Assembly: GCA_964528465.1 (NCBI GenBank)
Contig: CAZGSN010000667.1
Span: 1-43,581, forward strand
Length of the DNA stretch: 43,581 bases
Direction of reading: 5' to 3'
Source of the DNA: an uncultured Candidatus Binatia bacterium
GTDB taxonomy: Bacteria; Desulfobacterota; Binatia; HRBIN30
Positions 5,771 through 43,581 of this stretch are shown here, piece after piece. Both the position numbers and the translations under genes were made by a program. The first letter of the stretch is position 1. The number at the start of each line of letters is the position of its first letter. The notes beneath the pieces were generated by a model, which was not told the origin of the DNA, ran no database searches, and saw nothing but the letters and a program-made list of their open reading frames with translations.

Positions 5771-5801
5771 GCGTCGCCTGGAGCGGCGGGTTCGGCATCG
5801 T

Positions 5802-15142: not shown

Positions 15143-15155
15143 GAACGCAGGGTCT

Positions 15156-19517: not shown

Positions 19518-19720
19518 TGCATCTCCCAGAAGCAACGCATCAATAACCTAGGCACATGGGCACATGGGAACCGAAGGCTGAGGCTCGACCTATTGAGTGC
19601 CACTCCACACTCGGTTGTCCGCGCAAGATGGTGCCCGAGGTGCGAGAACAATAGGCCTTGGGAGGCGGGGCTCATCCTCTGCCTTAACGAGAGGCTGCCA
19701 CCATGTTGTGACCCGCGGGC

Positions 19721-24868: not shown

Positions 24869-25327
24869 GGCGTCTATCGGTATCGCGGAAAATGTTTCCA
24901 ATCAACTGAATTCATGCATTTCGCAATGAGGGATCGTTGGGCGTAGCGGTATGGCGAGGGGTAATGTTGGTTAGTCTAGACCGATTCGCGCTGTGCGCGC
25001 GCTTCGAGGGGTGCACGCGAGGCCCGGTGGTCATGGGGAACGCCCGAAGCGCGGCGCCTGTGTCTCGCCAGACAAGCTGGGGACGGACTGGTTCCTTACG
25101 CGCCCCGGTCGCCAGGCCAGCTCAATCTGGAAACATTTCGAAGGATAGGCTCCTGGCACGCGGGTTGACTTGCTTCGGCGGTGCGGCGTACATGGCCGCC
25201 GCAGATGGAGCGAGTCTGCGTATTGCTAGGTCGATGTACATTGCGAATCCGTGACCAGAGCCTCCGGGGTAGCCGGTTGATCGCAGCACCACGGCTAGGG
25301 CATTCCTGACGCGATAAATTGTCACTA

Positions 25328-28300: not shown

Positions 28301-28759
28301 ACATGGGTCGAGTTCGAAGGTGAAGTCAAATCGTTCTTCGAGCCATGGTCTGCGGGTGCGAACAGGAAGAACGACATCTTGATCATCCAATCCAACGGCA
28401 TAGCGCTACAGCTTCACACCCCGCCGCACCGCTTCGAGCCGCACCTGCGGCGGTCGTTTCGTATCGACTTTTTCGAAGCCTCGGCGCCTGCCAGTGGTTG
28501 GACGTTCGACGAAGCTCGTGACCTTATCATCGTTCCGGACCCGGCGAGCCGGAACGTCCTAACGTTCACGCTCGATGGAGCCGCAGTCATGGCTATCGAC
28601 CCGGAGCGCGACCTGGGAGCAATAAGCCCAGGCGTTGTCCGTCGAGTCGCCGCTAGCGCCAACGCCTTGTACATGCTCGACGGCAGGCAGCAGCTTCGCA
28701 AATTGGTGAGCCTCGACCGGGCTGGGCATGCACTTTCCAGCGAAGAGAACTTGAAATAA
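25328..28759 (+). CDS. Polytopic GT-C-fold (GT39/ArnT-like) membrane protein with periplasmic PA14-like module and degenerate beta-propeller C-terminus
   Basis: The hydrophobic N-terminal ~640 aa carry the first-loop motif LAAVTRLYALTELPHEYESEM. The PA14-like segment VRIEGSLLIDFSGWFHLRVEPSCAAAEISVDGEVVRPQNWLPLTGGAHEMVVRL lies at about nt 27600-27810. Propeller-like repeats (PDGTLFVPYAGDAVDEFSADGTLLSRW, ADGSILSALPGGKIALLDRNGREIGTW) lie at about nt 28020-28700. Possible starts: ATG 25328, TTG 25319 (track) or ATG 25364. Confidence 0.75.
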   Translation: MEKAWHCPAGARMILAITSVSVVTAPLVLVGVNQATRHERVLGALDFFFEQLRHSGKALIAWSVHYGEWVGVGVTALCLAAVIASVRQRKSDSAAIVSMATAISFLTWGELSLLADAVSRGCLFYAIGISAALIWGRRLPLPPRHSVELAPATSQASKTASNFRMVRTAEWPALVFLFLLAAVTRLYALTELPHEYESEMIISMLSSRTLVGLLRYIPEGIVANTNGIMHLLPQWVSFQVLGTSVFSLRFVSVACGLVCIALFYCIVRRVGGVSIAVVSTFLFVTAPEQLFWSRQENTPFQFVTLLALIVASAGLRMQERFSLRSMVVASATMPLARLFYGPAMVMLLYPPVLYAHGLLFSRAGRRSLLYGVPLLAAGVGAWIASLSTAASLISGQPWHFINPTLSAGAAVWRGEGTFREASLPELLRLQAANLAKNTAAVARAMTYQGSFSPWYRRADESTHPTIINAAMTVLLTLGLAYLLGQFSEPRAFALLVWVALAMLPALLSVDPVPRRMVGAFPAFYAIIAFTVGAILHQFCVLGASRIVWCAKVSSALALLLIAWANLASYFLLPMRPTHLEPLLAATKSIFQDTDGVYHNLGADWALLLAFGHGDDLFGKEDPPCYEGVRSRDWLHTALGVSCPFESPAMTYSLSAEQIEGLRARYDPQKISFLLEDRPATTKDVALLRALFPDSPFVELPRAGTALMSLHSLQVDRSNVDALRAPTLHPSASEAQPMDLAQSVMRDTKLVVGPSTDDSSVRIEGSLLIDFSGWFHLRVEPSCAAAEISVDGEVVRPQNWLPLTGGAHEMVVRLPSASACVLPIQVAGERHVDAGGSRAVSTPFVATRVASLPEARAMPVIRSRGYQEVLLPPLPEGVLSDFAVDEQGGLTLLLRNSHGYRIERLDAGGNPSGGWALSLDPLGISRAPDGTLFVPYAGDAVDEFSADGTLLSRWKTPWVRSATLGHLADGSILSALPGGKIALLDRNGREIGTWVEFEGEVKSFFEPWSAGANRKNDILIIQSNGIALQLHTPPHRFEPHLRRSFRIDFFEASAPASGWTFDEARDLIIVPDPASRNVLTFTLDGAAVMAIDPERDLGAISPGVVRRVAASANALYMLDGRQQLRKLVSLDRAGHALSSEENLK

Positions 28760-29011
28760 TGAAACAACAGGGCGTTCGGCGCTCTCACGGTCTTGTAAGC
28801 GCAACCCTGACCTTGCCCCGGCCTGCCAACAAATAGGAAGAGGGTGTTCCGACTGAATGGACTGTCTTGCCTTGCTGGCATGGGGATCAATAGAGCGCCG
28901 GGGAGTTGAGCTTCTTCAAAGTCAGGTTCTCTGGGGCTTAGCCGACAACTGCCAGGGCGAATCCATCATGGATGAAGGCGCTCTGGAAGTAGATGCCGGC
29001 CAGGCAAGCTT

Positions 29012-29047
29012 CTAGGAGCAGCGGGGCACTTGCACCGTTGCTCCTAG
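29012..29047 (+). promoter_or_regulatory. Extended hairpin in the 5' leader, 25 nt upstream of the 29072 start codon
   Basis: ctaggagca (29012-29020) pairs perfectly with tgctcctag (29039-29047). Inner pairs continue (g-u, c-g, g-c, g-c, then gc/gc around loop actt). It is followed by aagga (29056-29060) and ATG 29072. There is no T-tract, so it is not a classic terminator. Confidence 0.3.
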
Positions 29048-29071
29048 ATTGGAATAAGGACCAGCTTAACT

Positions 29072-31534
29072 ATGACGCAAAGAACAAAGTTGGCGTTTGC
29101 ACTTGGCTCGTGGGCCGCCATTGCAGCCATGGCTTACGGCCAGTATGCGATTCGGCTCGATCCGAACGACGACATCGCAACATCGATTGTAGTAGTTGCC
29201 GCGCTGTTGGCGGCACTCTTTCTGCGCGGTGAGGGTTCGTGGCCAGCCCTCGACACCGGCCCGTTTGAAGGGCGACGTTGGCCATTATGGGTTGGCATCG
29301 TCGTGGTGGTCTTAGGCATGGGGTTGGTTGGATGTGGTACCTATCTGCTCACCCTGAGCTTTCAGACTTGGGTGAATCACGGCTGGTTCCTGATCATCGT
29401 TGGAACCAGTCTGGCGAGCCTTGGATTTTATGGGCTCGATCCTAAGGGCAAGGCGGGACCGGGATGGAACCGCACCGAGATCTTGGTGTTGCTGGGCATT
29501 TTCCTGCTCGGACTATTCCTGAGATTTTACCGCTACACCGACTTCCCCCCCCCGTATACGATGCATGCCATCGAAGAGCCGCAGGCTGGGATGCGGGCAC
29601 ACTTCCTTCTCAAGGGAGTGTATTTTTGGGAATTCATCTTCGATAACTATCTGGCTGCGGCGAGCATGTGGTTGTTCGGTGACCGCAGCATTCTGGTCAT
29701 TCGTATCCCATTCACCATCGTCAGTGCGTTAACCGTGTTTCCACTCTATCTCTTGCTGCGTCAGGCTGTGAGCAAGCCAGCAGCTCTTGCTGCGACATTC
29801 TTGTCCGCGGTCTCCGCATGGAACATCATCTACTCTCGATGTGCCCATAATATTTTTGCGCCCAATATGCTCGTCGTACTCGCGTTTGCCCTTTGCTTTC
29901 GGGTAGGGCGTACCCACCGCTTGGCGGGAGCACCGTGGGCAGCCCTTCTGAGCGCGTTCATGCTCTACAACTATGCTGCCTATCGCGGTACTGCGTTGCT
30001 GGCGCTGCTTCTATTGGGGGGGGGGCTGCTCGTTGATTTGCACGCCTGGCGTCGAGCTACCGATGCGGCGACGCGGGCTTTGCAAAAGAGGTTTGTCTTG
30101 CGCATGGCCGTGGCTATCGCCTTGGTGCTCGCCTTTGGCGTTGCTCTGTTCGCTCCAATCTACAAGATCACCGCCTACAATTCTGCACAGCCGGGCTACT
30201 ACTTCGAAGCGGCGAATCGCTCCCTATCGAACAAGGAGTACTACAGCTCCGATCCCCAGAAATTCATTGCCTACCGAGTACAACGTATCAAGGAAACCTC
30301 TCGTATCTTTATGCACAAGGGGGACGGCTCGGACACCTTCAACGAACCGGGCGAGCCGATGCTGGACCCGCTTACGAGTGTCGCCTTCATCGGCGGAATC
30401 TTTCTGGTTCTCGTGAATCCGGGGCGACGTTTCAATTTATGGATCCTTGCAGGATTTCTGTTTGTGATGATCGGCGGTACGGTGTTCGTGCAGAATCTTG
30501 ACGTTCGTCGACTGCAGGGCGCTACTCCGTTTGTGATGATGCTTGTCGCGTTGTTTGTTGATCGAGTGTGGCTACTTGCCCAGCGTTTCCCGCGTAAGAT
30601 GGTGGTGCCCATAGCGATTCTCGTGGCCGTTGCTGGCGGCAGCTTCTGCACATTTTGGGGCTACAACATCTACTTCAACAAGATGTCCAAGAACCGCTTT
30701 GTCCGGCAGTCCATGCACAATCGCTACCTGAGCATAGTGCACTACGGGCGCACCCTTGGGACTGGGCATTTCTCATGGTTGTTGTCCGACATCCGTTTCT
30801 TTTTCCACCCGTCGGATTTCTATTGGCTGATCGAGGATCTGATCGCTGGGACGGAACTACGCGACATTACCGATGCCTTGCCACCGAAGAAGCTCCCCAG
30901 GACCCCGTTGCCGATCAATGTCGTCGTGCAGCACCCGTATGAGCGGCACGAAAGCGCCCGTCTGCTCCAACAGGTGTATCCGGGAACGCAATGCAACGAG
31001 TTTGCCGAGGAGGACAATCCGTACATCACCCTTACCTCGTGCAGCATTCCGAAAGATGTGTCGCCGCAGCCGCTGCAAATGCATTTGATGGCCCGCTACT
31101 ACCATGGCAATCAGCCTGCCGGCACACCGGTGGCGGAACGCCAGGAACCATACATCGGTTTTGGGACCTATCCCCCCGAGTGCTACCTCGTGCATGATTC
31201 CCACAATACCTGCGCGGCAGAGTGGAGCGGAATACTGCGCGTGCCGCGCAGCGGTGTTTACAAGTTCAATCTGGCATCGCGCGAGCACGCCAAGCTTACG
31301 GTCCAAATCGATGGCAAGCCCCTAACGGGAACGACCATGGAACTTACCGAGGGTGAGCACCAGTTCTCGGCGAGCGCCATCATTCCGCGGGACTCGGACA
31401 CCGGTGTGCGCTTCGAATGGGTTACCAAGGAAGGCAACATGGCCGTCCCCTTTTACGACCTGAGCCCCGATCTGCCTTCGCCGGAGCCGCTTCTAGTTGC
31501 CCCAACAGGAGAGCCTGCGGCGGCTGCACACTGA
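29072..31534 (+). CDS. Polytopic GT-C-fold (GT39/ArnT-like) membrane protein with C-terminal PA14-like domain
   Basis: 820 aa. LGIFLLGLFLRFYRYTDFPPPYTMHAIEEPQAGM is the first-loop acidic motif, followed by many TMs. The C-terminal AAEWSGILRVPRSGVYKFNLASREHAKLTVQIDGKPLTGTTMELTEGEHQF (about nt 31080-31470) fits the PA14 pattern (f.a.w.G.l.vp.sG.Y.F...sdd...l.idG). Confidence 0.8.
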   Translation: MTQRTKLAFALGSWAAIAAMAYGQYAIRLDPNDDIATSIVVVAALLAALFLRGEGSWPALDTGPFEGRRWPLWVGIVVVVLGMGLVGCGTYLLTLSFQTWVNHGWFLIIVGTSLASLGFYGLDPKGKAGPGWNRTEILVLLGIFLLGLFLRFYRYTDFPPPYTMHAIEEPQAGMRAHFLLKGVYFWEFIFDNYLAAASMWLFGDRSILVIRIPFTIVSALTVFPLYLLLRQAVSKPAALAATFLSAVSAWNIIYSRCAHNIFAPNMLVVLAFALCFRVGRTHRLAGAPWAALLSAFMLYNYAAYRGTALLALLLLGGGLLVDLHAWRRATDAATRALQKRFVLRMAVAIALVLAFGVALFAPIYKITAYNSAQPGYYFEAANRSLSNKEYYSSDPQKFIAYRVQRIKETSRIFMHKGDGSDTFNEPGEPMLDPLTSVAFIGGIFLVLVNPGRRFNLWILAGFLFVMIGGTVFVQNLDVRRLQGATPFVMMLVALFVDRVWLLAQRFPRKMVVPIAILVAVAGGSFCTFWGYNIYFNKMSKNRFVRQSMHNRYLSIVHYGRTLGTGHFSWLLSDIRFFFHPSDFYWLIEDLIAGTELRDITDALPPKKLPRTPLPINVVVQHPYERHESARLLQQVYPGTQCNEFAEEDNPYITLTSCSIPKDVSPQPLQMHLMARYYHGNQPAGTPVAERQEPYIGFGTYPPECYLVHDSHNTCAAEWSGILRVPRSGVYKFNLASREHAKLTVQIDGKPLTGTTMELTEGEHQFSASAIIPRDSDTGVRFEWVTKEGNMAVPFYDLSPDLPSPEPLLVAPTGEPAAAAH

Positions 31535-31775: not shown

Positions 31776-34700
31776 CTAGAACGCTAGAGGGAAGACCAGG
31801 TTGACCAAGAAGAAGTGGCGGTTGTAGGGGTCGGCCCAGAAGCCACCGGCGCTGGTGGTCAGCACGGCAATCTCTTCGATGGGGAAGTTGAGCGTCCCTT
31901 CGATGCCACCGGCGATACGGCTTCCCTCGGCGTCTTCGAAGAAGTCCGAGTCGACACCCGAGATCCACTGGCCTCCCACTTTGCCCGTCACCAAGAAAGT
32001 GGCGTCATCCAATGTGTCCGGGAAGAACGGGCCAGTGAAATCGAGGCGCAGCAAAGCCTGCACAAACGCGTCGGGGCTGAAATAGCCGCCGCCGGTGCGG
32101 CGCTCGTTGACGGCGGCGATGAGGTCCGCATCGGAGCTGGAAGAGCCACGCACGGGCTCGCTCAAATCCTTGTCGTAGTGGAAGAAAGCAAGCTCGACGC
32201 CAGGGCGAATCTGGTTGTCGTAGTTGCGCAGCTCAAATGTCCGCCCTACTCCGAGGAAGCCGTCAAACTTCTCGTTGTCCGGGATGCGAATGCCTTGCAA
32301 GGTGCTGTAAGCGAGTTCGAGCACACCATCGATTAGGGCTGGCGTGGTGAAGCCGATGCGTCCGCCGAAGCGGTCTTGAATCACCTTACCGATGAAGGTG
32401 TCGCTGTTGCCGGAGACCAGCTTCTGCCCGCGGAAGCTCAGCATCGATTCCATTACGGGTTGGCGCTCGTAGAACGGAGTCAGCGTCAACCATGGAGCTG
32501 GCTTGAGATCGAGTTGAGCAAAGCCTGTGAGATAGGGGCGACGCGGGAAGCCCCACGGGGTTCCGCCAACACCACCACTCAGGACAATGGCGTCTGTCCC
32601 CAGCGCCAAGCCGTTCAATGTCGCCATGCCGGAGACCCCGGCGTCGCGCTTGTCGCCGTTGTCGACCAAGGTTGGTTCGGCAGTCAGCCGGAAGCGCGTA
32701 TTGAGCGCCGCAGGCAGATCAACGAACATTGGAAAGCGATAAATCGCAAACTGGTCGGCCCGCCAGTCGGCCACGGCACTGAGGAAGTCGTAGCGAAAGC
32801 CAAGCCCCACTTTGACGGCTTGCTTTCTCGCCAAGTCACGAGCCAAGCGCTCCGCGCGCAGGCGTGCTTCCGGGCTCAAGGCTTTGACCGGCGGCGCCTC
32901 CACCTCTTCTGGGATCGTCTCGTACTGAATGGCCGAAAGATCGGAATAGCGCGGCACACCCTGTGTCGATGGATCATGCCTGCGTTCCCATTCCAGTCGC
33001 ACCGGCGGCAGCGAGTCTTCATAAACAACCGGAGCCGGAACCTGCGAGCGCGCTTGACGGCGTGCGGGCGTCGCCAAGCGTGGCACGGGCGTGGTCTCGA
33101 TGCGCGGTTCTTGCCAACCCCGTGGTGTGGGGACGCGCGTCGGCACCGCGGTAGCTTTCCCGCTACGCCCCTTGGCACGCACATCCCGCATGATGCGTTC
33201 GAAGCTTGGGAGGTCTTCCGCGATCTGAGCTTCCGCAACATCCCTCTCACGGTGGGCAGCCCAAGCCCGTAGAGCCTCAACAGCCCCGCCAGAGAACATC
33301 GCCGCTGCGGCTGGCGCAGCATCGTTCATGGAGTCCGTGGCGGCGGCGGCAAGCGGCTGCGAGGTCAACCGCGCCGTGGCGCGACTTCCCTGCCAGCGCC
33401 GTGGTGGCAGTGCATCGACCGGAGCCGGCTTGGCGCGTAATGTCCCTTGCGGCAACTTGAGCGGTGGCAGAATCGAATCGACGACAGCGCCACTGCTGGC
33501 GTAGCCCGAGCCCGGCTGCGGCGGCAGGCCGTAGACACCCACCCCGCCGCGACTCCCCGCCTCCTCGAGAATTGCCGAAGCATCTCCATCGCGCCCCATG
33601 TCGTGGTACATTTCAGCCAAAGCAAGGCCCAGCTCAGGATCTTTACTGGCCTCGTACTGGTCTTCCAAAATATCGAGTGCCTCACGCGTGTTACCGCTGC
33701 CGCGCAGGGCGTACGCCAGGCCTAGGCGCACGTCCCCATCTTCCGGCGCCAAGGCCTGTGCGCGAGAGAAGAACTGCTCGGCCTCCACGTACTGCTTGGT
33801 TTGCAGATAGAGGAAGCCAATGGATTTCAACGTGTCCACGTCGTTCGGGTCGCTGCGATAGTCTTGCGCCAAGAGAAGGTAGACCTGATCCAAGCGCCCC
33901 TCGCGCGTCAGCCGCTCGCGGTCGATCCGGTCCTGCGCGCGGCGCACGTCGCGAGCCAGCTCCGCCGCCGTTTGCGCTCCGAGTGTACGCTGGTCATTCG
34001 CAATGGCCTGGCGTGCATCGGCATAGCGACCGAGCTTCGAAAGTGCGCGAATACGCGCTGCCTGTAGGCGTGCGGAAGAACGGTTCAATGCCAAACCCTG
34101 CTCGGCATAGGTCAGGGCAAGCGTGTCGGCACCAGTTTCCAAGGTGACTTCCGAGAGCCCTGCCCACACATCGGGATCGCGCGGATTGCGCTCGCGCAAC
34201 TGCTCCATGAGATCGCGCGCATCGGCAAAGCGTCCGGCTTCGATGAGCTGACGGGCGTATTCCATATCGCGATGGAAGGCGATGCGGTTCCAGGTTTCCG
34301 CCGACACCTCGTACCCAGGGATGGTATCCAATCGGCGATAGGTGGCCTCAGCAGCTTGCCAGTCCCCCACGCCTTCGTAGGCTCCGGCGATCCCTTGCAA
34401 AGAGCCCGGATCATCGGGATTGGCAGCAAGCACGGCACGGTGCGTGTCGATGGCATCCTGGAACTGCCCCTGCTTGGAATAGACACCGGCAATCACCTTG
34501 AGGGAATCCGCGTCTTCCGGATCCAGGGCCAGAGCCTCGCGCGCGGCAAAGAACGCTTCGTTCGTGCGTCCGGAATCAAGTAAGGCGCCAGCCTGGGCTC
34601 GGCGCAGATTGGCACGCTCGCGATTCGCCGCCTCCGGGTGCGCGGCGCTGTAAGCGGTGAGTGCCTGTTCGGCTTCGCTGTAACGCTTCATCGCCGTCAG

Positions 34701-37700
34701 GGCGCGCACCTGCCCCGCATACGCCTCCGCCGAGGCATCCGGGGCCTCGGCCAGGCGGCGGTAGCTGCTCAAGGCCAACGAATGGTCCCCGACCAACTCT
34801 GCGGCTCGCGCCTCGTCGTAGGCGAAATCTCCGCGATAAGGGTCGAGTTCGCGCCCGCGCTTGGCAAGTTGCAAGGCAGAGCGCGCCGACATAGTGGAAG
34901 GATCTTCCCGCCACTGGGCTAGCCGTTCTTGGATCGATAAGGTCTCGGAAATCTTCTGTCCTTGCGCCGCATCGGGTAGTTGACGGGCATAGACACGCGC
35001 CCGCTCCCAATCCTGGCCAGCCAAGGCAATCTGCGCACGCATCGACAGAGCCTCGGCGTTATTCGGGTCGCGCTCGAGAACCTGCTCAATCGCAGCATCC
35101 GCCGCCTCCAGTTCCTGTGCCGAAAGATGGCGACCAGCGATGGCCAGCAAGAGGTTCGTATTACCACGCAGCGCCTCGGGATTACTTGGGTACTCGTCGA
35201 GAACCGAGTCGTACAGTGCCCGCGCCTGTTCGAGATCTCCATTCGAAAAATAGGCACCGGCAAGCGCATTGGTGACGAATGCATCATGCGGCCGGCGAGC
35301 CCGGGCAGCCTCATACGCGGCAATGGCGAGGCCGTACTCCTGTTGCTGCGAGTACAATCCGCCCAGGGCCAACTGTGCGTTGACGTTCTCTGGATCTTGA
35401 TCGAGGGCCTGGTGCACGAGGTGGATGGCCTCGTCGAGTTTCCCCGCCCGTTGCAGCGCCGCCGCTTCGGCCAAGGTGTAGCCGACATCGCGCGCACGGC
35501 CTGGCTCGGCAGGAAGCTCGGGGGCTGGTGGCGACGACTCAACCACAACCGCGGGGGGAGCCTTCTCCTTGGGCACAGACTTCCCCGCTTTTTGCTTACG
35601 GCCTTTGCTCGGCTTCTCGGTGACATCGACGACCTTGGCAACCTCGATGGCCGCCTCGCTAGGCGCGTTTGCCATCGCCGTTGGTCCTTCGCGTAGCTTG
35701 CGATAGGCGCTCAGAGCGCGATCGCTTTCTCCCAAGCGCTCGAGGGCCTGGGCACGCACCAGCATCAGATCGTCGCGGCGCGGGGCAACGCTGAGACCAC
35801 GTTCCGCTAGCGACAGCACCTCGCGAGGGTTGGCGTTGTCCGGATCATTGCGCCACGGTTGCAATTGTCGCTCGACATCGACGAGCTGACGCAAGCGATT
35901 CTTTTCGTCGCCGTTGGGCAAGCGTTCGAGCGCAAGTTGCGCCGATTCGTAATCGCCCGAGGTCATGCTCATTTCGATCAAGCCCTTTACCGACTGAGCG
36001 CTCCCCCCTTTCACCTGCAGAGCTTGAGCAACGTAACGCCGCGTAGCGTCCTGCTCACCCCGGCCGAGAGCATCGGATGCCATGGTGGCAAGCACGTCGA
36101 CTTGCCCATTGGCAGCGTCCACATCGTCGGGGTCGGCTTTGCCGGCCGCTTGAAAGGCATGCAAGGCATCAGGGAGTTGGCGTGCGGCGAAATAAGAACC
36201 GGCCAAGCCGTTCCACAGTTTGGCATCGTTGGGGGCCAGCTTGAGTGCGTTGCGATACGAGTCTACCGATTCCTTGTAGTTGCCGGCGCGCTTGTGCTCC
36301 TCGGCTTCGACCGACAGCAAGGCCACGCGCACAGCGTTCTCTTCTCCTGGGAACAAGCGCTGAAATTCTTCGAAGCCGGCGCGCGCATTCTTCTCGTCGC
36401 CTTGGGCAATATAGACCCGCACGGGACCAAGATACGCTTCCCGGAGGTCGGGCTGCTGCGAACGTAGGGCCATGTAGAGAGGCAACGCCTCGTTGCCTCG
36501 GCCACTCCGTTCCAACAACTGCGCCAGGCGCAGGCGGTAATCGACGCGTTCCGGAGCTTGGGCAACGGCTTTGCGCAGCAAGGCTTCGCTGCTTTCGTCA
36601 CTAGCGCGTTCGATCTTGGTTTCGAGCTGCTGCGACTTGCGCTGCTGGGCGATTTCCTTGCGCAGGCGGTCGTAGTCGCGGCGGGCTCGTCGTTTTAGGC
36701 TCGGCAGTAACGACTCGGCGCGGCTGTATTCGCCACGTGCGGCATAAACCGCGGCCAAGCCTTTGGTTGCCTCCAGGTGCTGCGGTTTGAGTTTGAGAGC
36801 AGCCTGGTAGTCTTGCTCCGCCGCCTCCGGGTTACCTTGGGCAAAAGCAATACCGCCGCGTAGAGCCAACAGGTCGGCACGTTGGTCGACGAGTGTACCC
36901 GCCTGCTCGAGGGTGGCTGCGGCTGCGTCTAAATTCCCCGCCTTCATTTGCGCCGAAGCCAACGCCGCTACCGCGGCGGCCGTCTTGTTGGCCGACGCAT
37001 CCAACGTAACCGGCGCAGGCTTGGGTGCGATAAGCTTGGGGAGATTTTCCGGCACAACGACTGGAGCCGCGGGCTGCAACGGCAAAGGGGAAACGGCTAC
37101 TGCCGCGGCCTTCTTGCCTGCTTGTCCTTGTTTCTTGACCAGGGACCCCTGGATATCGGCATACTCCTTCGCCAAAGCTGGGTCAGAGCTCAGCTCCAAG
37201 GCACGCTCATATTCTGGGAGCGCTGCCTCGCGGCGGCCACGATTCACTTCGAGGCGAGCAATCGTCACGGCTAGGTCCGGACGCCGCACCGACATCTCGC
37301 GCAATCGCTGAATGACCCGATCTACATCGTCGTAGTTGCGGGTCATGTTGGCTGTGCGTCCAAGCCCAGCCAGAGCATCGGCATCGTCGGGATGCGCCTC
37401 GACGTAGCTCTTGAAATGGCCATAGGCAGCAGCGTGCTTGCCGCCGGCTTCTTCGGCCAAGGCGACAAGCTTTAGATCTTCGCCTTGCAGCGCCACACCA
37501 CCAGCCAGGGCTCGTGCAAAGTGATCCTGTGCTTCCTTGGACTGACCGTTCCAGGCAAGGGAGCGTGCATACAGCAGGCGCCGATCGGCGTCTTGGGGGC
37601 GTGCTTGTACGATTTCCGCCAGTTGCGGGATGGCTTCGCGAATACGGCTTTGGCTGATGAGCAGGTCTGCCAACTGACTACGTCGCGCCACGTCATCCGG

Positions 37701-38126
37701 CCGCTGCTCCAAGTAAGCCTTCAGGATTTCGGTGGCACGCGGCCACCCTTCTTTGGATTGCGAGAGTAGGTCGACGAGGCGCCGCTGGGCGTGAACATCC
37801 GGTTGGCGTTTGAGAGCGGCCTCGAACGCAGCGACTGCCCGTTCGCGCTCGCCCAACTGCATGTATGCTTCGCCGAGGCCGCTGTAAGACGAGGCCGGTG
37901 CGTTGGGTTGAAGCGTGAGTTTTTCGTAGGCATCGCGCGCTTCGCGCCATCTACCTGACTGCAAGTAGAAACGTGCTACGGCCGCCTCGTCTTCAGCGCG
38001 TGATGTCGCCTGCGCCGACGCAGCGTACGTCCACAGTGGGGAGCAAACCAGCGCTAGGGAAAGGGAGAGAGCCTTGATGGCGCGCATGCGACTATCCATC
38101 CGTTCGAAAATTGAACTCACCGCCAT
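31776..38126 (-). CDS. Giant (~2116 aa) TPR-repeat protein with C-terminal BcsC-like outer-membrane beta-barrel (exopolysaccharide-export-porin-like)
   Basis: Signal peptide MAVSSIFERMDSRMRAIKALSLSLALVCSPLWTYAASAQA. ATG 38126 is preceded by aatGGAGGgaggtg (SD, 6-nt spacer). TPR-like helical repeats span about nt 33560-38040. A Pro/Ala/Arg-rich linker spans about 32820-33560. The C-terminal ~347 aa has alternating beta-strand patterning, the motif GGGYFSPDAF (nt 32073-32093; compare BcsC GGYFSPQ) and a terminal ...LVNLVFPLAF, an aromatic OMP C-terminus. Confidence 0.8.
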   Translation of the reverse strand: MAVSSIFERMDSRMRAIKALSLSLALVCSPLWTYAASAQATSRAEDEAAVARFYLQSGRWREARDAYEKLTLQPNAPASSYSGLGEAYMQLGERERAVAAFEAALKRQPDVHAQRRLVDLLSQSKEGWPRATEILKAYLEQRPDDVARRSQLADLLISQSRIREAIPQLAEIVQARPQDADRRLLYARSLAWNGQSKEAQDHFARALAGGVALQGEDLKLVALAEEAGGKHAAAYGHFKSYVEAHPDDADALAGLGRTANMTRNYDDVDRVIQRLREMSVRRPDLAVTIARLEVNRGRREAALPEYERALELSSDPALAKEYADIQGSLVKKQGQAGKKAAAVAVSPLPLQPAAPVVVPENLPKLIAPKPAPVTLDASANKTAAAVAALASAQMKAGNLDAAAATLEQAGTLVDQRADLLALRGGIAFAQGNPEAAEQDYQAALKLKPQHLEATKGLAAVYAARGEYSRAESLLPSLKRRARRDYDRLRKEIAQQRKSQQLETKIERASDESSEALLRKAVAQAPERVDYRLRLAQLLERSGRGNEALPLYMALRSQQPDLREAYLGPVRVYIAQGDEKNARAGFEEFQRLFPGEENAVRVALLSVEAEEHKRAGNYKESVDSYRNALKLAPNDAKLWNGLAGSYFAARQLPDALHAFQAAGKADPDDVDAANGQVDVLATMASDALGRGEQDATRRYVAQALQVKGGSAQSVKGLIEMSMTSGDYESAQLALERLPNGDEKNRLRQLVDVERQLQPWRNDPDNANPREVLSLAERGLSVAPRRDDLMLVRAQALERLGESDRALSAYRKLREGPTAMANAPSEAAIEVAKVVDVTEKPSKGRKQKAGKSVPKEKAPPAVVVESSPPAPELPAEPGRARDVGYTLAEAAALQRAGKLDEAIHLVHQALDQDPENVNAQLALGGLYSQQQEYGLAIAAYEAARARRPHDAFVTNALAGAYFSNGDLEQARALYDSVLDEYPSNPEALRGNTNLLLAIAGRHLSAQELEAADAAIEQVLERDPNNAEALSMRAQIALAGQDWERARVYARQLPDAAQGQKISETLSIQERLAQWREDPSTMSARSALQLAKRGRELDPYRGDFAYDEARAAELVGDHSLALSSYRRLAEAPDASAEAYAGQVRALTAMKRYSEAEQALTAYSAAHPEAANRERANLRRAQAGALLDSGRTNEAFFAAREALALDPEDADSLKVIAGVYSKQGQFQDAIDTHRAVLAANPDDPGSLQGIAGAYEGVGDWQAAEATYRRLDTIPGYEVSAETWNRIAFHRDMEYARQLIEAGRFADARDLMEQLRERNPRDPDVWAGLSEVTLETGADTLALTYAEQGLALNRSSARLQAARIRALSKLGRYADARQAIANDQRTLGAQTAAELARDVRRAQDRIDRERLTREGRLDQVYLLLAQDYRSDPNDVDTLKSIGFLYLQTKQYVEAEQFFSRAQALAPEDGDVRLGLAYALRGSGNTREALDILEDQYEASKDPELGLALAEMYHDMGRDGDASAILEEAGSRGGVGVYGLPPQPGSGYASSGAVVDSILPPLKLPQGTLRAKPAPVDALPPRRWQGSRATARLTSQPLAAAATDSMNDAAPAAAAMFSGGAVEALRAWAAHRERDVAEAQIAEDLPSFERIMRDVRAKGRSGKATAVPTRVPTPRGWQEPRIETTPVPRLATPARRQARSQVPAPVVYEDSLPPVRLEWERRHDPSTQGVPRYSDLSAIQYETIPEEVEAPPVKALSPEARLRAERLARDLARKQAVKVGLGFRYDFLSAVADWRADQFAIYRFPMFVDLPAALNTRFRLTAEPTLVDNGDKRDAGVSGMATLNGLALGTDAIVLSGGVGGTPWGFPRRPYLTGFAQLDLKPAPWLTLTPFYERQPVMESMLSFRGQKLVSGNSDTFIGKVIQDRFGGRIGFTTPALIDGVLELAYSTLQGIRIPDNEKFDGFLGVGRTFELRNYDNQIRPGVELAFFHYDKDLSEPVRGSSSSDADLIAAVNERRTGGGYFSPDAFVQALLRLDFTGPFFPDTLDDATFLVTGKVGGQWISGVDSDFFEDAEGSRIAGGIEGTLNFPIEEIAVLTTSAGGFWADPYNRHFFLVNLVFPLAF

Positions 38127-38138
38127 CACCTCCCTCCA

Positions 38139-38192: not shown

Positions 38193-38657
38193 CTACTGGT
38201 CCAGGTTCGGGACACTCACGCTCAGGCTGGCGAGATCCGCAAACGCGGACTGGCGCGCGCGTGACGTACCGTCCACCTTGATTTCGATCACAAGCTGCTT
38301 GCGACCCGGCTCGGTGAGATTGGCCGAGACCGTAAAGAAGCCACGTGCGTTGGTATACGGAATCGTCGCGGGGATAGTACCATCAATGGTCTGGTTCGAC
38401 GTCGCATCGCCCATCTGGCCGCGAAAGGCTGCCCCGAGGGTACCTTCAATAGACACAACCACCTGATGATTGGTGCTACGCGTCGGCGTTGGGTTCTGGT
38501 TGGGCGGCGTTACGCTAGGTGTGGGAGAGACGGTGAAGGGTGGCGTTGGAGTGGGCGGATTATAGCCGTCGTCGTCATCCTCATCCGGCCCACAGCCCGG
38601 CATGAACGCACCGAAGATCAAGAGAATTAAGGAGAGATACAGCCTCATCATCCACAC
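38193..38657 (-). CDS. Small lipoprotein with acidic and Pro/Thr-rich linker and ~95-aa beta-rich domain
   Basis: MWMMRLYLSLILLIFGAFMPGCGPDEDDDDGYNPPTPTPPFTVSPTPSVTPP has a signal peptide and a lipobox-like FMPGC (Cys22). Alternative ATG starts are at 38651 and 38648. It lies directly upstream of, and co-oriented with, the TPR/BcsC-like gene. Confidence 0.7.
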   Translation of the reverse strand: MWMMRLYLSLILLIFGAFMPGCGPDEDDDDGYNPPTPTPPFTVSPTPSVTPPNQNPTPTRSTNHQVVVSIEGTLGAAFRGQMGDATSNQTIDGTIPATIPYTNARGFFTVSANLTEPGRKQLVIEIKVDGTSRARQSAFADLASLSVSVPNLDQ

Positions 38658-38965
38658 ACCCCACAGCCCAAGCTGTGTTCCGCACGACGTTTTAGCAGCA
38701 CGAATCCGTCAACCGCCGCCACTCAATATCATTAGACCAAATGAGTCAAGCGCGTTGGCGCTCCTACGTGCCATGGGGTGTGCGGCAAATTTGTTGGGAG
38801 GCAAGCTTCCACCATCCACGCGCTCACGCGCGCGGCTACACGGAGCCGGCGAAGACACAGTAGCCGCGGCCGTCGGGCGGTGGATCTCGCATGGAAGCCA
38901 ACAAATAGGACGCACACCCCCGCATAGCGCGCCGAATCCGCGATTCTTGTCGCGTCGCAGGAATT

Positions 38966-41900
38966 GTGCGATGGCCGTGCACCCCGATGTCGTATCCCTG
39001 CTCTCTTATCCGCGACTGCGTTGAGGTGCGACGGCACCCTACGGTGGTCCGCCTAAGTGATCTCGAGAGCGAGAGTTCGCATTGGCTCGGGGAAACCTTC
39101 GTTCTCACCAAAGAGGTGCAAGCGCACCTCGCCGCCCTACAGCATTGCCTCCGTCAACCTCATGGCAGTGGCGTGTTCCTCATCGGCCACTACGGCTCGG
39201 GGAAATCGCACCTGCTGGCTTATCTGGCCTTGCAACTACGTGGGCAATGGGTGCCGGAACCGCCACACGTGGTTCCTATCTCTCTGGTGAATTTTGGTTC
39301 GACCAACCGCCTCGAGGACATTGTTGCCGGTGCCCTCGGCGTTGCTGTCGGCGGTGGCGACAGACGGCCGGCTTGGGAGGCCATCCTGGCGCAACACGCA
39401 CGTGGCCTCGTGCTCCTCTTCGACGAACTCTCGGAATTCCTGCGCGCCAAGCCGGATGCGCGAGGATTGAGCGAGGATGTTCGCTTCCTGCAGTTCCTTG
39501 GCGAGTATGCGCAAGATCATCGCTTGTGGATCGTGGCCGCCATGCAGGAAGAGATCGAGCACACCGGCGCCCTCGACTTTGAACTCTACCGCAAGATCAA
39601 GGACCGCTACCCGCTTCGCCTCTTGCTCACACCAGCCCACGTGCAAGCCCTGGTCGCCGACAGCATTTTGATCAAGAAGCCTGTGTATGCCGGGGCGGTG
39701 CAGGAGCTGTGTCGCGACCTGAAGCCCCTGGCTTCCGAAACCAGCATGGATTTCGAAACCCTGCAGCGCGTCTATCCGCTGCACCCGGCGACACTGAACA
39801 TGCTGGAGGAGATCCGCGATCGCTTTTCCCAGGCCCGCGGGGTGATCGATTTTACAGTCACCCGCCTGCTCGGGGATCCTGCCCGCGGCGTCGATGCCTT
39901 CCTCGATCAACCCTTTGGAAGCCTGCTCACACCAGACACCATCGTCGATCACTTCCAAGACCTGTTCGAAGTGCAGCCGGAGTTCCTACCGCTCGCGCAG
40001 CAGCTCCTGCCCTGGTACGCCAATCATCTCGACGAGCTCTTCGATCGTCCCGCCCTGCGCGACTTGGCCCGCCGTATCCTAAAGCTACTTCTCTTGGTGC
40101 ATCTGTCGCCGGCTCGCGAAGCGCTGCGCCCCAACGAAGCCTTGGGTTGGTTGATGCTGATGGCAACGCGTCTGGAACCGAGCCGCAATCGCGCCGTGAT
40201 CGAGCGCGTGCTGACGACGCTGGCAGATCGCGGGCGCTATGTGGTTCGCCAGGGCGACGGCTACCGTCTCGATTTGCGCGACGACAGCGCCGCAACTCTG
40301 GAGCGCTTGCTAGCACGGGAGGTTGCTGCTCTCGAAGGCCAGGGCACGCTCGTGCTCGAGCGCTTGGTTCCCTTGCTGCCGGCCACTGCCTTCAACCCCT
40401 TTCACGGCACACGCAACCGCTGGCAGCATCGCCGCGTCACCTGGTACTTCCACGAACGCCGCTTTGCGCTTTGGGTCGGTGACGAGAACCCGGAAGTGCC
40501 GCGGGATCAACTGGGAATTTGCTTGCGCCTGCCGTGGGGCAACCGCGACCCCGCTCCCGGTTGCTTCACTGTCTTACCTGCCGCCATGGAAGTCACGCCG
40601 GCACTGGTCGAGCTGGCCGCCCTGCAGTATTTGCGCGAACAACCGGCAAGCCCCGAACTCGCACGCCGTGTCGCCCAGCGCCTCGACAGCCGCCGCACGC
40701 TGTGGGAGCAGGCAGTGCGTACGGCTTGGCAATCGGCACAACTACTCACACCCGATGCCGCCAGCGAACCGGCACCACGACTCGATCCACAAAGCGGATT
40801 CGAAGCCTGGCTCGATCAGGTGGCACTCACGGCACTGCGCCGCACCTACCCGGCCTTTGAACGCTTCGCACCGCAGCATGGTCCGCTGCCCAAAGAAGCG
40901 TGGCTGCGCTTCCTGCGCTTCGCGGTGAAGGAGGACCTTGGCTCGCCGCTTGCCGACGAGTACGTGCGCTTGATTCGCGAAGCCTACCTGGTGCCGATGG
41001 GCCTGCTGCGCCGCAAGGGACAAGAGTACACCACACCCGCCAATCTCGATCGCCATGAGCTGGTGACGCTGCTGGCGCCGCTCCTGCAACGTGAAGCCAA
41101 CCCACGCAGCGTGCACGAGCACCTGTCTGCGCCCATCTATGGCTTGGTGCCAGATCAGATCAATTTGCTGTTAGTGTTCCTGCTCCTGCAGGGCGAGATC
41201 GACATTCTCAAGGATCGGCGTTCGTACAGAGAGACCTTCGAGCTGCTGCCCAACCCGCTTCAGTACGATCGCATCGTCGCCGGCACGGCACTCAGCAGCG
41301 AGGCGCTGCGCGATCTCGAGCACCTATGCCGCGGCCTAGGTTTGGCTGTGCCATCGCAATGGAGCGCGCTGACGCAACGGCGCACGGCGCACCAGTTGAA
41401 GGAGTTGGGACGCCGTGAGACCGAGCACCAGTTGCCCTTGCTCCGACAACTCGTCGACAGCGAGCACACGGCACTGGCCAAGCGCCTGCAGGCACACATC
41501 GACATGTGGGCGAGCCTCGAGGCGGGTAAGGATGCGCTGCACGGCTTGCAACAGTTCCTGTTCAACATCGGCACCGCTTCGGCGTTCCTGGCCGATCGTG
41601 AGGCGCTACGCGAGCTGCCTGAGCGTATTCCCCGCTTGCTTGCGCAAGCGCAGCGCCTGACCCACGTGCTCCAGCATCCCATCGTGCGCCGACTACAGCC
41701 AGTCGACTCCCAGGCGCTCGGCGCGAGCCCAGGGCTCGACGATCTGCCGGGCTTCGAACGCTGGCTGCAACGTGCGGATCGCTTGTACGAAGCGCACAAA
41801 GCCTCGTATCGCGAACGGCACGAAGCTTGGTGGAACTCGGTTCCGAAATCCGAGCCATGGCAGTGCCCGCCGTTAGCGCGCAGCCGGCACCTCGATCTCA

Positions 41901-43285
41901 GCGAGCTGGCAACCCAGGAAGAGAGCTGCCTTCGTGAGGCTGAGCAAGCGCGTTGTAGCGGGCTTGTGGATTTGAATTTTCAAGCGCAATGCCGCTGTGG
42001 CTTCGATGGGGAAACGGCACCCGTCGCTGGAATCTTGGAACGTCTCGCTGCTCTGCGCCAGCAAATCGAGGAGCGCTTGCGCCTGTTCTTTGCGCAGGGC
42101 CAGGTCAAGGCACGCATCCGCCAGTGGCAACAGCAAGGGATCGAACTCAACCCAGCCACCCTGGCCTACCTCGACGGCAAACAACCGTGGCCGCAGGTCG
42201 AAGATCTTGCCGGCTTCGATGACTTTCTCGCCGGCGCCGACCTGGCTGCCGAGGTCGACGTCACGCCCATCCTCGAGTTGCTTGCCAGACGCACCTGGCG
42301 CCCCGACGATTTGCTGCGCGAGTTGCAGCGCTTGTTCCTCGCCACCAATGCCCCGCGTTTGCGCTTTGCAAGCCGGCCGGCGGGCCAGGTTCCGGACTCT
42401 GTCCTTGCCTGGTGCGCCGAGCAGTGCCTGCGCTCGGCGAGCCCCCTGCCCGGAGACTTCACCCGCGAAGAGCTGCGCCGGCTTGGCGGTTTGTTGCGTC
42501 CCGAATGGGTGAGCCCCAAAGCCTTACATCGGCTAGAGAAGCTCGGGCTTGAGGAGGCCGGTGTCGATCAGATTCTAACCTGGTTGCTTAGCGGTCAGGT
42601 GGCCGCGCCGGAGCAAGTAGAGGACAGCCAATCCGTCGTGGCCACTGCCATCGAGTTGTTGCACCCGACACCCGCCACAGGGCCACGGCAGCTCGGACAA
42701 GTCTGCGCCCGTCAATATCGCGATAGCCGACGCTTCCAGCGCATCGCACCCCAACGTTGGCTGCAGCACCTGGACGCCCTGGCGAAGGCTCCGCTTGCTG
42801 GCTTGCCGGACCTGACTACAGCGCTGCGCCAACATGAGGCAGCTCAGTGGCTCTTGGTGGATGCTCTTGGCCTCCCCCTCTTCGAGCTGGCAACCCAGCT
42901 CCTGCACGCCACGCTCAGCGAGTGGAGCCCGGCACAGATTTCCTTCGCGCAACGTTCCACCACGAACACCACCACTGACGGCTGCTACCGCGAACTCTTG
43001 GATGCCAATCTGGTGCACGAGATCACCAAGCTCGATGTTGTCGATACCTTACTGCACGCCGAGGCGACACCGTTCGCCGAGCTACAAGCTTTGGTGAGCA
43101 CGCGTCTCGCCGCCCCTTTACAACGCGTGGCTGGCCGCCTCGATCCGACACGCCCCCTGCTGGTATTTGCCGACCACGGCTTCCGCCTCAGCCCCAACGG
43201 ACGTCATTACGTCCACGGCGGCGCCTCGACCCTGGAACGTGTCGTCCCCCTGTGGCACTTCGCCGCACGCACGCGTCAGGGCTGA
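38966..43285 (+). CDS. 1439-aa fusion: BrxC/DUF6079-like P-loop ATPase N-terminus + PglZ-like (alkaline-phosphatase-fold) C-terminal domain
   Basis: The N-terminal pattern VVRLSDLESESSHWLGETFVLTKEVQAHL is followed by Walker A GHYGSGKSH (nt 39185-39211) and Walker B LVLLFDELSEF (DE at 39422-39427). The C-terminal ~150 aa (nt ~42840-43282) reads WLLVDALGLPLF...RSTTNTTTDGCYRELL...LLVFADHGFRLSPNGRHYVHGGASTLERVVPLW. This follows the PglZ pattern (vvDalr..l / T-rich nucleophile segment / sDHGf / yaHGG.S..E..vP). The GTG start at 38966 is uncertain; ATG 38987 is the alternative. Confidence 0.75.
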   Translation: MRWPCTPMSYPCSLIRDCVEVRRHPTVVRLSDLESESSHWLGETFVLTKEVQAHLAALQHCLRQPHGSGVFLIGHYGSGKSHLLAYLALQLRGQWVPEPPHVVPISLVNFGSTNRLEDIVAGALGVAVGGGDRRPAWEAILAQHARGLVLLFDELSEFLRAKPDARGLSEDVRFLQFLGEYAQDHRLWIVAAMQEEIEHTGALDFELYRKIKDRYPLRLLLTPAHVQALVADSILIKKPVYAGAVQELCRDLKPLASETSMDFETLQRVYPLHPATLNMLEEIRDRFSQARGVIDFTVTRLLGDPARGVDAFLDQPFGSLLTPDTIVDHFQDLFEVQPEFLPLAQQLLPWYANHLDELFDRPALRDLARRILKLLLLVHLSPAREALRPNEALGWLMLMATRLEPSRNRAVIERVLTTLADRGRYVVRQGDGYRLDLRDDSAATLERLLAREVAALEGQGTLVLERLVPLLPATAFNPFHGTRNRWQHRRVTWYFHERRFALWVGDENPEVPRDQLGICLRLPWGNRDPAPGCFTVLPAAMEVTPALVELAALQYLREQPASPELARRVAQRLDSRRTLWEQAVRTAWQSAQLLTPDAASEPAPRLDPQSGFEAWLDQVALTALRRTYPAFERFAPQHGPLPKEAWLRFLRFAVKEDLGSPLADEYVRLIREAYLVPMGLLRRKGQEYTTPANLDRHELVTLLAPLLQREANPRSVHEHLSAPIYGLVPDQINLLLVFLLLQGEIDILKDRRSYRETFELLPNPLQYDRIVAGTALSSEALRDLEHLCRGLGLAVPSQWSALTQRRTAHQLKELGRRETEHQLPLLRQLVDSEHTALAKRLQAHIDMWASLEAGKDALHGLQQFLFNIGTASAFLADREALRELPERIPRLLAQAQRLTHVLQHPIVRRLQPVDSQALGASPGLDDLPGFERWLQRADRLYEAHKASYRERHEAWWNSVPKSEPWQCPPLARSRHLDLSELATQEESCLREAEQARCSGLVDLNFQAQCRCGFDGETAPVAGILERLAALRQQIEERLRLFFAQGQVKARIRQWQQQGIELNPATLAYLDGKQPWPQVEDLAGFDDFLAGADLAAEVDVTPILELLARRTWRPDDLLRELQRLFLATNAPRLRFASRPAGQVPDSVLAWCAEQCLRSASPLPGDFTREELRRLGGLLRPEWVSPKALHRLEKLGLEEAGVDQILTWLLSGQVAAPEQVEDSQSVVATAIELLHPTPATGPRQLGQVCARQYRDSRRFQRIAPQRWLQHLDALAKAPLAGLPDLTTALRQHEAAQWLLVDALGLPLFELATQLLHATLSEWSPAQISFAQRSTTNTTTDGCYRELLDANLVHEITKLDVVDTLLHAEATPFAELQALVSTRLAAPLQRVAGRLDPTRPLLVFADHGFRLSPNGRHYVHGGASTLERVVPLWHFAARTRQG

Positions 43286-43458: not shown

Positions 43459-43581
43459 ATGGCCGCTCCCATCTATGTGCTTGGTGGATACCAAACCGAC
43501 TTTGCCCGCAACTGGAACAAGGAGAGCAAGCACATCGTTGCGATGATGCGTGAGGCGGTGGAGGGTGGCCTGGAGGCAACC
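43459..43581 (+). CDS. Thiolase-like protein (SCP-x/acetyl-CoA acetyltransferase-like), N-terminal 41 codons only
   Basis: ATG 43459 is preceded by AAGGAG (43445-43450, 8-nt spacer). The translation is [41 protein letters not shown]. The IYV.GGyQTdF start is typical of thiolase-fold proteins. The frame is open to the window end. Confidence 0.65.

Follow-up and report, generated by a model that had tools for sequence, protein, structure and literature searches.

The window, by which we mean the whole stretch of DNA analysed here, is the 43,581-nucleotide contig CAZGSN010000667.1 of an uncultured Candidatus Binatia bacterium, and the gene in question lies close to its right-hand end, on the forward strand. 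In the protein that it encodes, a BrxC-type AAA+ ATPase and a minimised PglZ-type two-metal hydrolase domain are joined covalently, with the catalytic residues of both parts intact, and we regard this assignment as firmly supported. Equally well supported is the finding that the gene is kept by selection and belongs to a rare and scattered family whose members are normally paired with a tetratricopeptide repeat (TPR) gene and are never accompanied by other genes of the bacteriophage exclusion (BREX) systems.

An uninterrupted open reading frame (ORF) of 1439 codons runs from a GTG at 38966 to the stop codon ending at 43285, according to the ORF list and its translation. An in-frame ATG at 38987 yields a 1432-residue product identical to the database protein P0001; residue numbers below are counted from this ATG, which matches the family consensus N terminus (MxxxxxxIRD) and is likewise favoured by gene callers. 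The start codon is ambiguous between 38966 and 38987, and the longer start is possible: at locus L087, which holds an 89%-identical copy, an ATG is aligned to the GTG of the window, an AGGA precedes that GTG, and the seven extra codons between the two candidate starts (RWP...) are partly conserved. We annotate the coding sequence as 38987..43285 on the forward strand (stop codon 43283-43285; alternative start GTG 38966), drawing on the translation, the homologues and the ratio of nonsynonymous to synonymous substitution rates (dN/dS). By pairwise DNA alignment a leader of about 60 nucleotides (38927..38986, +), containing the AGGA and the GTG, is alignable with L087, and similarity vanishes upstream of it; a promoter scan scored no sigma-70-like promoter. 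Homology searches returned 661 homologues at E≤1e-3, the top 120 of them mostly full length (about 1430 residues) and 42-89% identical to the window protein. A codon alignment with L087 gave a dS of 0.91, a dN of 0.062 and a dN/dS of 0.068. Because the homologues are so many, and at the top mostly full length, and because dN/dS is low, this is a genuine gene under purifying selection and not a chance ORF.

The first 300 residues (38987..39886, +) comprise a BrxC-signature segment (IRDxVxV..HPTVVRL) and an AAA+ ATPase core, recognised by Pfam, PADLOC, profile and Foldseek searches alike. Within them lie a Walker A motif, GHYGSGKSH (residues 67-75, with K73; 39185-39211, +), a Walker B motif, LLFDE (residues 143-147, with D146 and E147; 39413-39427, +), and a BrxC-like R/K motif, YRKIKDRY (39587-39610, +). 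All three (G67-H75, D146/E147 and the R/K motif) are invariant in an alignment of 112 sequences. The N terminus matches the Pfam family DUF6079 (PF19557) significantly, at E 4.9e-23 and 81 bits against a gathering score of 23, over residues 145-299 only, which correspond to positions 170-322 of a 1238-position profile; AAA_22 was matched as well. PF19557 carries the name BrxC-PglY_N in a newer Pfam release, and a 2026 survey of BREX equates DUF6079 with BrxC (PMC12839542). PADLOC models of BrxC match the N terminus at 1e-17 and those of SspC do so weakly, while the NCBIfam model BREX_BrxC (NF033441) scores 60 bits against a cut-off of 400, below the equivalog level for canonical BrxC.

Profile and structure comparisons led to the same family. 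A profile built from 33 family sequences (A1) matches the Acinetobacter BrxC chains 9zn5_A and 9zll_A in the PDB at E 8e-6, in an alignment that covers the N-terminal segment, Walker A and the R/K motif (YRKIKDRYPLR against SKIAGRFKTR). An AlphaFold2 (AF2) model of residues 1-1040 (m92b4daee61bb), computed from the 112-sequence alignment, reached a predicted local distance difference test score (pLDDT) of 90.5, and Foldseek returned residues 1-551 of Acinetobacter BrxC as its best match (E 9e-10; template-modelling (TM) score about 0.5, target-normalised), followed by ORC/Cdc6 proteins. We consider it firmly supported that the N-terminal part is an ORC/Cdc6-clade AAA+ ATPase of the BrxC type with its catalytic motifs intact.

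Beyond the ATPase core, the AF2 model shows in order a helical lid, a winged helix, an alpha+beta block, helix/hairpin modules and a helical arm of some 260 residues. The lid and first winged-helix-like module (residues ~301-430; 39887..40276, +), delimited approximately from the secondary structure of the model, fall inside the part that superposes on BrxC 1-551. The middle region (residues ~431-770; 40277..41296, +) contains an alpha+beta domain, with strands at residues 479-530, and two winged helix-turn-helix (wHTH)-like modules, as assigned by DSSP; Foldseek found no separate structural match for it, and its domain reading follows from the order of elements. The long helical, coiled-coil-like arm (residues ~771-1035; 41297..42091, +) was delimited by DSSP in the same way. 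BrxC proteins have been described as carrying, after the ATPase, a wHTH, an alpha+beta domain, one or more further wHTHs and then a coiled coil that has a distal subdomain (PMC12839542 and its preprint). The order of elements in our model agrees with that architecture by inspection only, the Foldseek match being limited to the solved BrxC 1-551. Towards the end of the arm, three invariant cysteines (C990, C1002 and C1004, in RCxGLVxLDFQxxCxCGFDG, residues 989-1008; 41951-42010, +) sit in an unstructured loop between arm helices 972-988 and 1013-1035. By analogy with the distal subdomain of BrxC or the zinc hook of Rad50, this cluster may be a candidate zinc-binding dimerisation element. A connector follows (residues ~1036-1280; 42092..42826, +), comprising a small alpha/beta element and then a helical bundle in AF2 model m1786f9e21317 (pLDDT 94); Pfam gave it no family assignment.

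The last part of the protein, residues 1281-1432 (42827..43282, +), is a minimal PglZ-type domain of the alkaline phosphatase superfamily, identified by Foldseek, profile searches and invariant residues. When the AF2 model of residues 1034-1432 (m1786f9e21317, pLDDT 94) was compared with the PDB, PorX occupied ranks 1 to 14 with probabilities of 0.96-1.0, and below it came iPGM, phosphopentomutase, YejM, ICR/MCR and an Acinetobacter BREX PglZ chain. TM-scores were low (0.29) because the domain makes up only about 150 of the 399 modelled residues (~38%). The metal ligands of PorX are D239, T272, D361, H365, D415, H416 and H500, with a core of G501, G502, E507 and P511 (PMC9757075), and each has a counterpart here. 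The metal ligand D1292 (42860-42862, +) maps to D239, the nucleophile T1330 (42974-42976, +) to T272, D1353/H1357 (43043-43057, +) to D361/H365, D1396/H1397 (43172-43177, +) to D415/H416 and H1410 (43214-43216, +) to H500; G1411, G1412, E1417 (43235-43237, +) and P1421 map to G501, G502, E507 and P511. H500 served to check how far the PDB chain index is offset from PorX numbering. The residues lie in the motifs VDALG (residues 1291-1295), RSTTNTTTDG (1323-1332), FADHGF (1394-1399) and YVHGGAS..E..VP (1408-1421), with the same local spacings as in PorX (D-x3-H, DH and H-x6-E-x3-P). Among 112 short-form and 23 long-form sequences the ligands and the GG/E/P core show little or no variation, the long form being a larger version of the protein described below.

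Searches with the window protein by itself did not reveal this domain. Pfam returned nothing for the PglZ part at E≤10 from C-terminal pieces of 239, 439 and 800 residues, NCBIfam TIGR02687 gave a 33-residue match that was not significant (E 0.041), and the A1 profile of short-form sequences retrieved only BrxC and generic AAA+ proteins from the PDB and no PglZ. A combined profile to which long-form relatives had been added (A6) reached PorX at 2.2e-10 and BREX PglZ structures at 1.2e-4 and 1e-3. The short-form domain profile also detects the same domain at the extreme C terminus of the long-form group, where it carries the signatures ILDGLRxDLW, P(S/T)xT, DxxxH, SDHGF and YxHGGxSxxExxxPW; for 18 of 24 long-form domains PglZ ranks first among the Pfam families, below threshold and with a best E of 9.7e-5. 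A previous sequence-only reading of this DNA had proposed a BrxC/DUF6079-like ATPase joined to a compact PglZ-like domain in one protein. Profiles, structures and the invariant catalytic residues bear this out, the ORF lies at the coordinates it gave, and every motif it quoted is present in the translation; as to its PglZ assignment in particular, the lone protein yields no significant match, and the family profile and the structure do.

The domain is nevertheless reduced relative to known PglZ proteins. From the nucleophilic Thr to the DxxxH motif there are 23 residues, against 89 in PorX, and from DHG to the His of HGG there are 14, against 85. Because these distances are shortened, the three-stranded cap subdomain that follows the DHG loop, listed as a PglZ synapomorphy (PMC12839542 and its preprint), is missing, and DSSP of the AF2 model shows no inserted sheet. 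In the PglZ of E. fergusonii, T538A abolishes nuclease activity and H741A reduces it, and both mutations weaken BREX defence; these residues are the equivalents of PorX T272 and H500 (PMC12205998), to which T1330 and H1410 map. The C-terminal domain thus derives from PglZ and is probably active, though it differs from a standard PglZ domain.

We were interested in how widely this arrangement occurs. A scan for related loci, taking one genome per species, gave 80 loci, nearly all from metagenome-assembled genomes and with Neomoorella as the single cultured genus. They are spread sporadically over more than ten phyla and include Gammaproteobacteria (many of them Methylococcales), Acidobacteriota, Binatia, Myxococcota, Planctomycetota, Gemmatimonadota, Actinomycetota (Acidimicrobiia), Bacillota, Nitrospirota, Bacteroidota and Spirochaetota. 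Searching 1.84 billion representative proteins with the C-terminal-domain profile produced 177 matches; the domain was always at the very C terminus, and full-length matches had either about 1400-1460 or about 1650-1780 residues, with shorter ones looking like contig-end fragments. Given this consistent position and the two size classes, the minimal PglZ domain is essentially confined to the BrxC-fusion architecture, and the family is rare.

The long form (1550-1860 residues) is found in Bacillota, Nitrospirota, Bacteroidota and others, and has a larger PglZ-like domain with canonical DGLRxD and PTxT motifs. Long-form loci include L075, L067 and L053-L082, as well as those of the cultured Neomoorella stamsii and N. 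glycerini (WP_054937442.1). In N. stamsii (L078) a TPR gene at 4319-5317(+) is followed by the ATPase-PglZ gene at 5383-10851(+). The same pair appears in databases as the Neomoorella 'DUF6079 family protein' WP_054937442.1 and the 'tetratricopeptide repeat protein' WP_054937441.1; the former has 1822 residues with an insertion in the PglZ-like domain, and its annotation assigns no function and does not recognise that domain. The two Neomoorella species could serve as experimental hosts. Two loci show irregularities. About 2.5 kb downstream of the full-length gene at L011, a 122-residue ORF fragment (16803-17168, +) matches the second half of the PglZ-like domain at E 2e-37 and has the look either of a partial duplication or of what is left of a second copy. 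At the Methylococcales-type locus L002 (P0038, 1371 residues), the PglZ-like domain is split over three frames (13983-14313, +), through either pseudogenisation or an assembly error.

Clustering of all flanking ORFs from 39 full-length loci identified a sole conserved neighbour, a cytoplasmic TPR protein of about 320 residues. At short-form loci (fusion proteins of ~1430 residues) its gene is on the opposite strand, usually 30-390 bp upstream; BLAST clustering placed it at 30 loci, a profile search raised the count to about 43 of the fetched loci, and the next largest neighbour cluster comprised only four loci. Examples are L002:8843-9808(-), L010:8986-9948(-) and L084:9009-9980(-), with some 40 others. 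Long-form loci have a 330-residue TPR gene directly upstream and co-directional, overlapping the ATPase ORF in L075, and in many of these loci it resembles the short-form partner weakly in sequence. The partner in Moorella scores above the Pfam threshold for TPR-S (TPR sensor). The TPR protein and the ATPase diverge in parallel: both average 41% identity, and their distances correlate with a Mantel r of 0.64 that none of 999 permutations reached.

The partner is not universal. The partner profile found no such protein in the window, including a six-frame search of the 329-bp intergenic region 38658-38986; none was seen in the 366 bp available upstream at L087, and L016, L022, L035, L040 and L043 have no adjacent partner. 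Since these last five are scattered over the tree, adjacency to the TPR gene has been lost several times. The sequence-only reading had called the gene stand-alone, a description that fits the window copy and a few relatives and fails for the family, in which about 43 loci have the adjoining TPR gene.

Within the window, the gene most nearly upstream is a 154-residue ORF on the reverse strand (38193-38657) with a signal-peptide and lipobox-like start, a Pro/Thr-rich linker and no family match. It stands between the fusion gene and a giant gene (31776-38129, -) encoding a 2117-residue TPR protein with a BcsC-like C terminus (BcsC_C in Pfam). We considered the latter as a stand-in for the missing partner and rejected it: it gave only scattered generic TPR matches to the partner profile (best domain 23.5 bits), and its BcsC-like C terminus suggests an outer-membrane protein, which argues against that role. 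Further upstream, Pfam identified a run of very large envelope-type proteins (7311-24901, -; 25319-31534, +). They include PMT_2/DUF2298 glycosyltransferase-like membrane domains fused to NHL beta-propellers (900, 1598 and 714 residues), a 1726-residue Laminin_G_3 protein and two PMT_2 proteins (1146 residues, and 820 residues with a PA14 domain). A 508-residue protein (17751-19277, -) carries a SEC-C metal-binding motif at its N terminus as its sole Pfam domain, and its weak PADLOC matches (PDC-S12, E2) arise through the SEC-C motif alone.

A 250-residue class I S-adenosylmethionine methyltransferase (6558-7310, -; Methyltransf_25/11 in Pfam, UbiE-like) matches part of the PADLOC mad2 model at 1e-11; it is of the small-molecule type and no DNA N6-methyltransferase, and 32 kb separate it from the fusion gene. 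A tandem pair of M16 (pitrilysin) peptidase genes (1899-5038, -) is 34 kb away. The nearest named relatives of the M16 peptidase come from Candidatus Binatia and similar metagenome-assembled genomes, an indirect sign that the host is probably a member of the Binatia. A similar pair (L083:1-2806(-)) is found 7-10 kb from the homologue at L083, probably by coincidence or through shared host ancestry. On the other side, 173 bp past the stop codon of the fusion gene, a 41-codon ORF fragment (43459-43581, +) runs off the contig; it has no Pfam match, and the thiolase label it had been given is not verifiable from 41 codons. The fusion gene ends 296 bp before the contig end, which limits the downstream view for this copy. 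Among the 16 large ORFs of the window scanned with Pfam and PADLOC we found no PglX, BrxA, BrxB, BrxL, protease or helicase, in agreement with the sequence-only reading, which had seen no BREX partner genes here.

Elsewhere in the family the surroundings vary. Up to 10 kb on each side of about 45 related loci, no PglX, BrxA, BrxB, BrxL or separate PglZ recurs. Contexts include rpsU-dnaG-rpoD with an HDOD protein; recBCD with a WYL protein; M16 peptidases, PQQ-repeat (PQQ_2) proteins, an ABC transporter and a resolvase; two-component regulators with a BrnT/BrnA pair; and a region of variable appearance containing an SNF2 helicase and small genes of toxin-antitoxin-like type. What the window shares with L087 is the gene and the leader of about 60 nucleotides; the downstream genes differ, those of L087 encoding an ABC transporter. 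As dS is near 0.9, it proves little on its own that the two no longer resemble each other between genes.

The closest known systems are BREX and its relatives, and PorX. Systems of the BREX/Pgl group encode BrxC and PglZ together, and both are present here as domains of one protein; neither the modification enzyme (PglX/BrxX or BrxP) nor any further Brx gene (BrxA, BrxB, BrxL, BrxH, PglW) was found in the window, a search limited for this copy by the contig end 296 bp downstream. The BrxC:BrxB:PglZ core of type 1 BREX (Acinetobacter, E. fergusonii, Salmonella; PDB 9zll, 9zdx, 9zn5, 9nv3) has in common with it the ORC/Cdc6-clade AAA+ module, the N-terminal signature, the Walker and R/K motifs and the PglZ two-metal site, with a Thr nucleophile and a His equivalent to T538 and H741; the order of wHTH, alpha+beta, wHTH and coiled-coil elements looks similar. 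In type 1 BREX, however, BrxC and PglZ are separate though physically associated, whereas here they form one polypeptide, and the fusion family has a TPR protein as its partner instead of the BrxB adaptor, PglX, BrxA and BrxL. The PglZ part of the fusion spans about 150 residues, against about 285 inside a type 1 protein of some 850, and is without the cap as well as the N-terminal domain that binds BrxB and the Ig-like domain at the C terminus. The ATPase is distant in sequence from canonical BrxC, and tblastn gave no match to any plasmid-borne BrxC.

For the C-terminal domain, structure and profile searches both match best to PorX, the response regulator of the PorXY system of type IX secretion (PDB 7pv7, 8ted), whose ligand set and HGGxSxxExxxP motif are identical to those of the fusion. 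PorX pairs its PglZ domain with a receiver domain and not an AAA+ ATPase, functions in signalling and secretion control, and has a PglZ domain of about 305 residues with the cap subdomain and an alpha5a/b switch, unlike the fusion. The DUF499-based 'type-3 BR' systems, the only ones outside BREX for which the 2026 survey describes PglZ, likewise bring together an ATPase like BrxC and a PglZ effector without being canonical BREX, and their PglZ has no extra fused domains; they use a DUF499 ATPase, retain a methyltransferase and a helicase, keep a separate PglZ with its cap and have no TPR partner. It had been claimed that BREX core genes always occur with PglX, which was too strong, since type 4 BREX (BrxP, BrxC, PglZ, BrxL) is also without it (PMC12839542). 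For phosphorothioate modification type 4 encodes a PAPS-reductase/DUF4007 protein; it also has BrxL, its BrxC and PglZ are separate proteins, and its extra genes are not present here. As the sequence-only reading had supposed, we found no characterised system with this architecture, PADLOC giving only N-terminal BrxC and SspC matches. We found no description of a BrxC-PglZ fusion family in the searchable literature, the works that mention DUF6079 included; databases say only "DUF6079", and the 2026 survey mentions neither the fusion nor the TPR partner (PMC12839542). The fusion is real, BREX-related and, it appears, undescribed.

Work on BREX offers a template for how the two halves might act together. 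There, BrxC forms dimers or oligomers with ATP, binds to DNA and brings in PglZ by way of BrxB, in ATP-dependent complexes (PMC13326643), and PglZ depends on metal to nick and cut DNA (PMC12205998). For the fusion, the data show the domain identities, the catalytic residues, the linkage to the partner and purifying selection; from these we infer DNA binding, nuclease activity, a role for the TPR protein and a function in defence. On ATP binding, the AAA+ modules would dimerise or oligomerise on DNA as BrxC does, and this assembly would position or activate the C-terminal PglZ domain, which would then cut phosphodiester bonds in DNA, or possibly in oligonucleotides, with T1330 as the nucleophile. 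The covalent linkage would stand in for the BrxB adaptor that bridges BrxC and PglZ in BREX, and the TPR protein of about 320 residues, present in most members and absent from the window, would be the likely sensor or regulator. With no methyltransferase there would be no epigenetic self-marking, and invading DNA would be the most plausible target. That the ATPase and PglZ domains act in cis on DNA under control of the TPR protein, and have a role against foreign DNA, is the reading we put forward, as one that falls a little short of an even chance. The more specific proposal that the TPR and BrxC-PglZ proteins make up a self-contained, modification-independent immune module derived from BREX, in which the TPR protein senses an invader cue and the ATPase assembles on DNA and fires the PglZ nuclease, is more doubtful, and we offer it as speculative.

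An accessory character is supported by the 177 representatives among 1.84 billion proteins, by the scattered taxa, by the TPR gene being the only conserved neighbour and by the flanks that differ at L087. The proposed defence role comes from homology, and several observations weigh against it. Neighbouring genes are mostly of housekeeping type (rpsU-dnaG-rpoD, recBCD, transporters, peptidases), and no PADLOC defence family recurs among 114 neighbouring ORFs at 22 loci, a scan of naively called ORFs with no background control that returned one SNF2 helicase and a few generic matches. No family members were found in 72,556 plasmids and 50,697 phage genomes, and IMG/VR gave three weak, N-terminal-only matches. 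At 42-60% identity over 1430 residues across phyla and a dN/dS of 0.07, the protein is unusually conserved for one with an immune function. A PglZ domain without its cap and of about half the usual size could differ in substrate or activity, and the window copy, having no TPR partner, implies that the partner is dispensable or encoded elsewhere. The defence interpretation offered by the sequence-only reading is not backed by genomic context.

These same observations, namely housekeeping-dominated contexts with no defence-island signal, strong purifying selection with high conservation across phyla, and absence from the plasmids and phages searched, speak for a rival reading in which the identical architecture serves a non-defence role, as a housekeeping or regulatory machine. 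It might be a phosphodiesterase of the PorX type, breaking down oligonucleotide signals, linear or cyclic, under the control of an ATP switch and a TPR adaptor; in structure and profile searches alike, the PglZ-like domain comes closer to the signalling protein PorX than to BREX PglZ. Alternatively, it might be a chromosome-maintenance or repair factor, with an ORC/Cdc6-like ATPase and a coiled-coil arm bearing a Cys cluster. A sparse and scattered distribution is unlike that of a housekeeping function, however, no functional pathway is conserved nearby, and the flanks differ even between 89%-identical copies; moreover, the ATPase specifically resembles BrxC, a protein that up to now is known from BREX and Pgl only. 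We hold a non-defence role to be a serious possibility, if on the unlikely side.

It is also conceivable that the C-terminal domain is a dead or structural PglZ relic, serving for example in dimerisation, and that the protein is an ATPase scaffold whose effector lies elsewhere. The lost cap, with about half of a normal PglZ gone, and the failure of Pfam to recognise the domain in the window protein would fit such a relic, as would the finding that PorX's PglZ domain and its metal site also mediate dimerisation (PMC9757075). Yet the seven ligands, nucleophile included, and the GG/E/P core are kept with near-invariance in both forms of the protein, as expected only if the active site is used, and the last 150 codons of the gene, which correspond to this domain, show a dN/dS of 0.13 against L087; we judge a dead domain improbable. 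Finally, it is very improbable that the gene is an orphan of a decayed or rearranged canonical BREX locus, or that BREX genes lie just past the contig end: it does sit 296 bp from the end of a 43.6-kb contig, with downstream content largely out of view and without even the usual TPR partner, but the roughly 45 related loci have no recurrent BREX genes, the fusion architecture is itself conserved under purifying selection, the downstream gene from 43459 is an unrelated ORF, and the ABC transporter genes lie downstream at L087.

The natural covalent fusion of a BrxC-type ATPase and a PglZ domain provides evidence of the 'Rosetta-stone' kind that the two activities belong to a single functional unit. 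It further shows that the PglZ fold is reducible to about 150 residues with its full metal site kept, and that current Pfam, NCBIfam and PADLOC models overlook this minimal domain. The family offers a one- or two-gene system for studying how an ATPase is coupled to a nuclease, with no methyltransferase, BrxA, BrxB or BrxL and with a small TPR partner. If the speculative immune-module proposal is true, the family would represent the BrxC-PglZ effector core in its minimal natural form, directly usable to learn how BREX restricts phage. If the family is not defensive, it would provide the first BrxC-type ATPase with a role outside BREX and Pgl.

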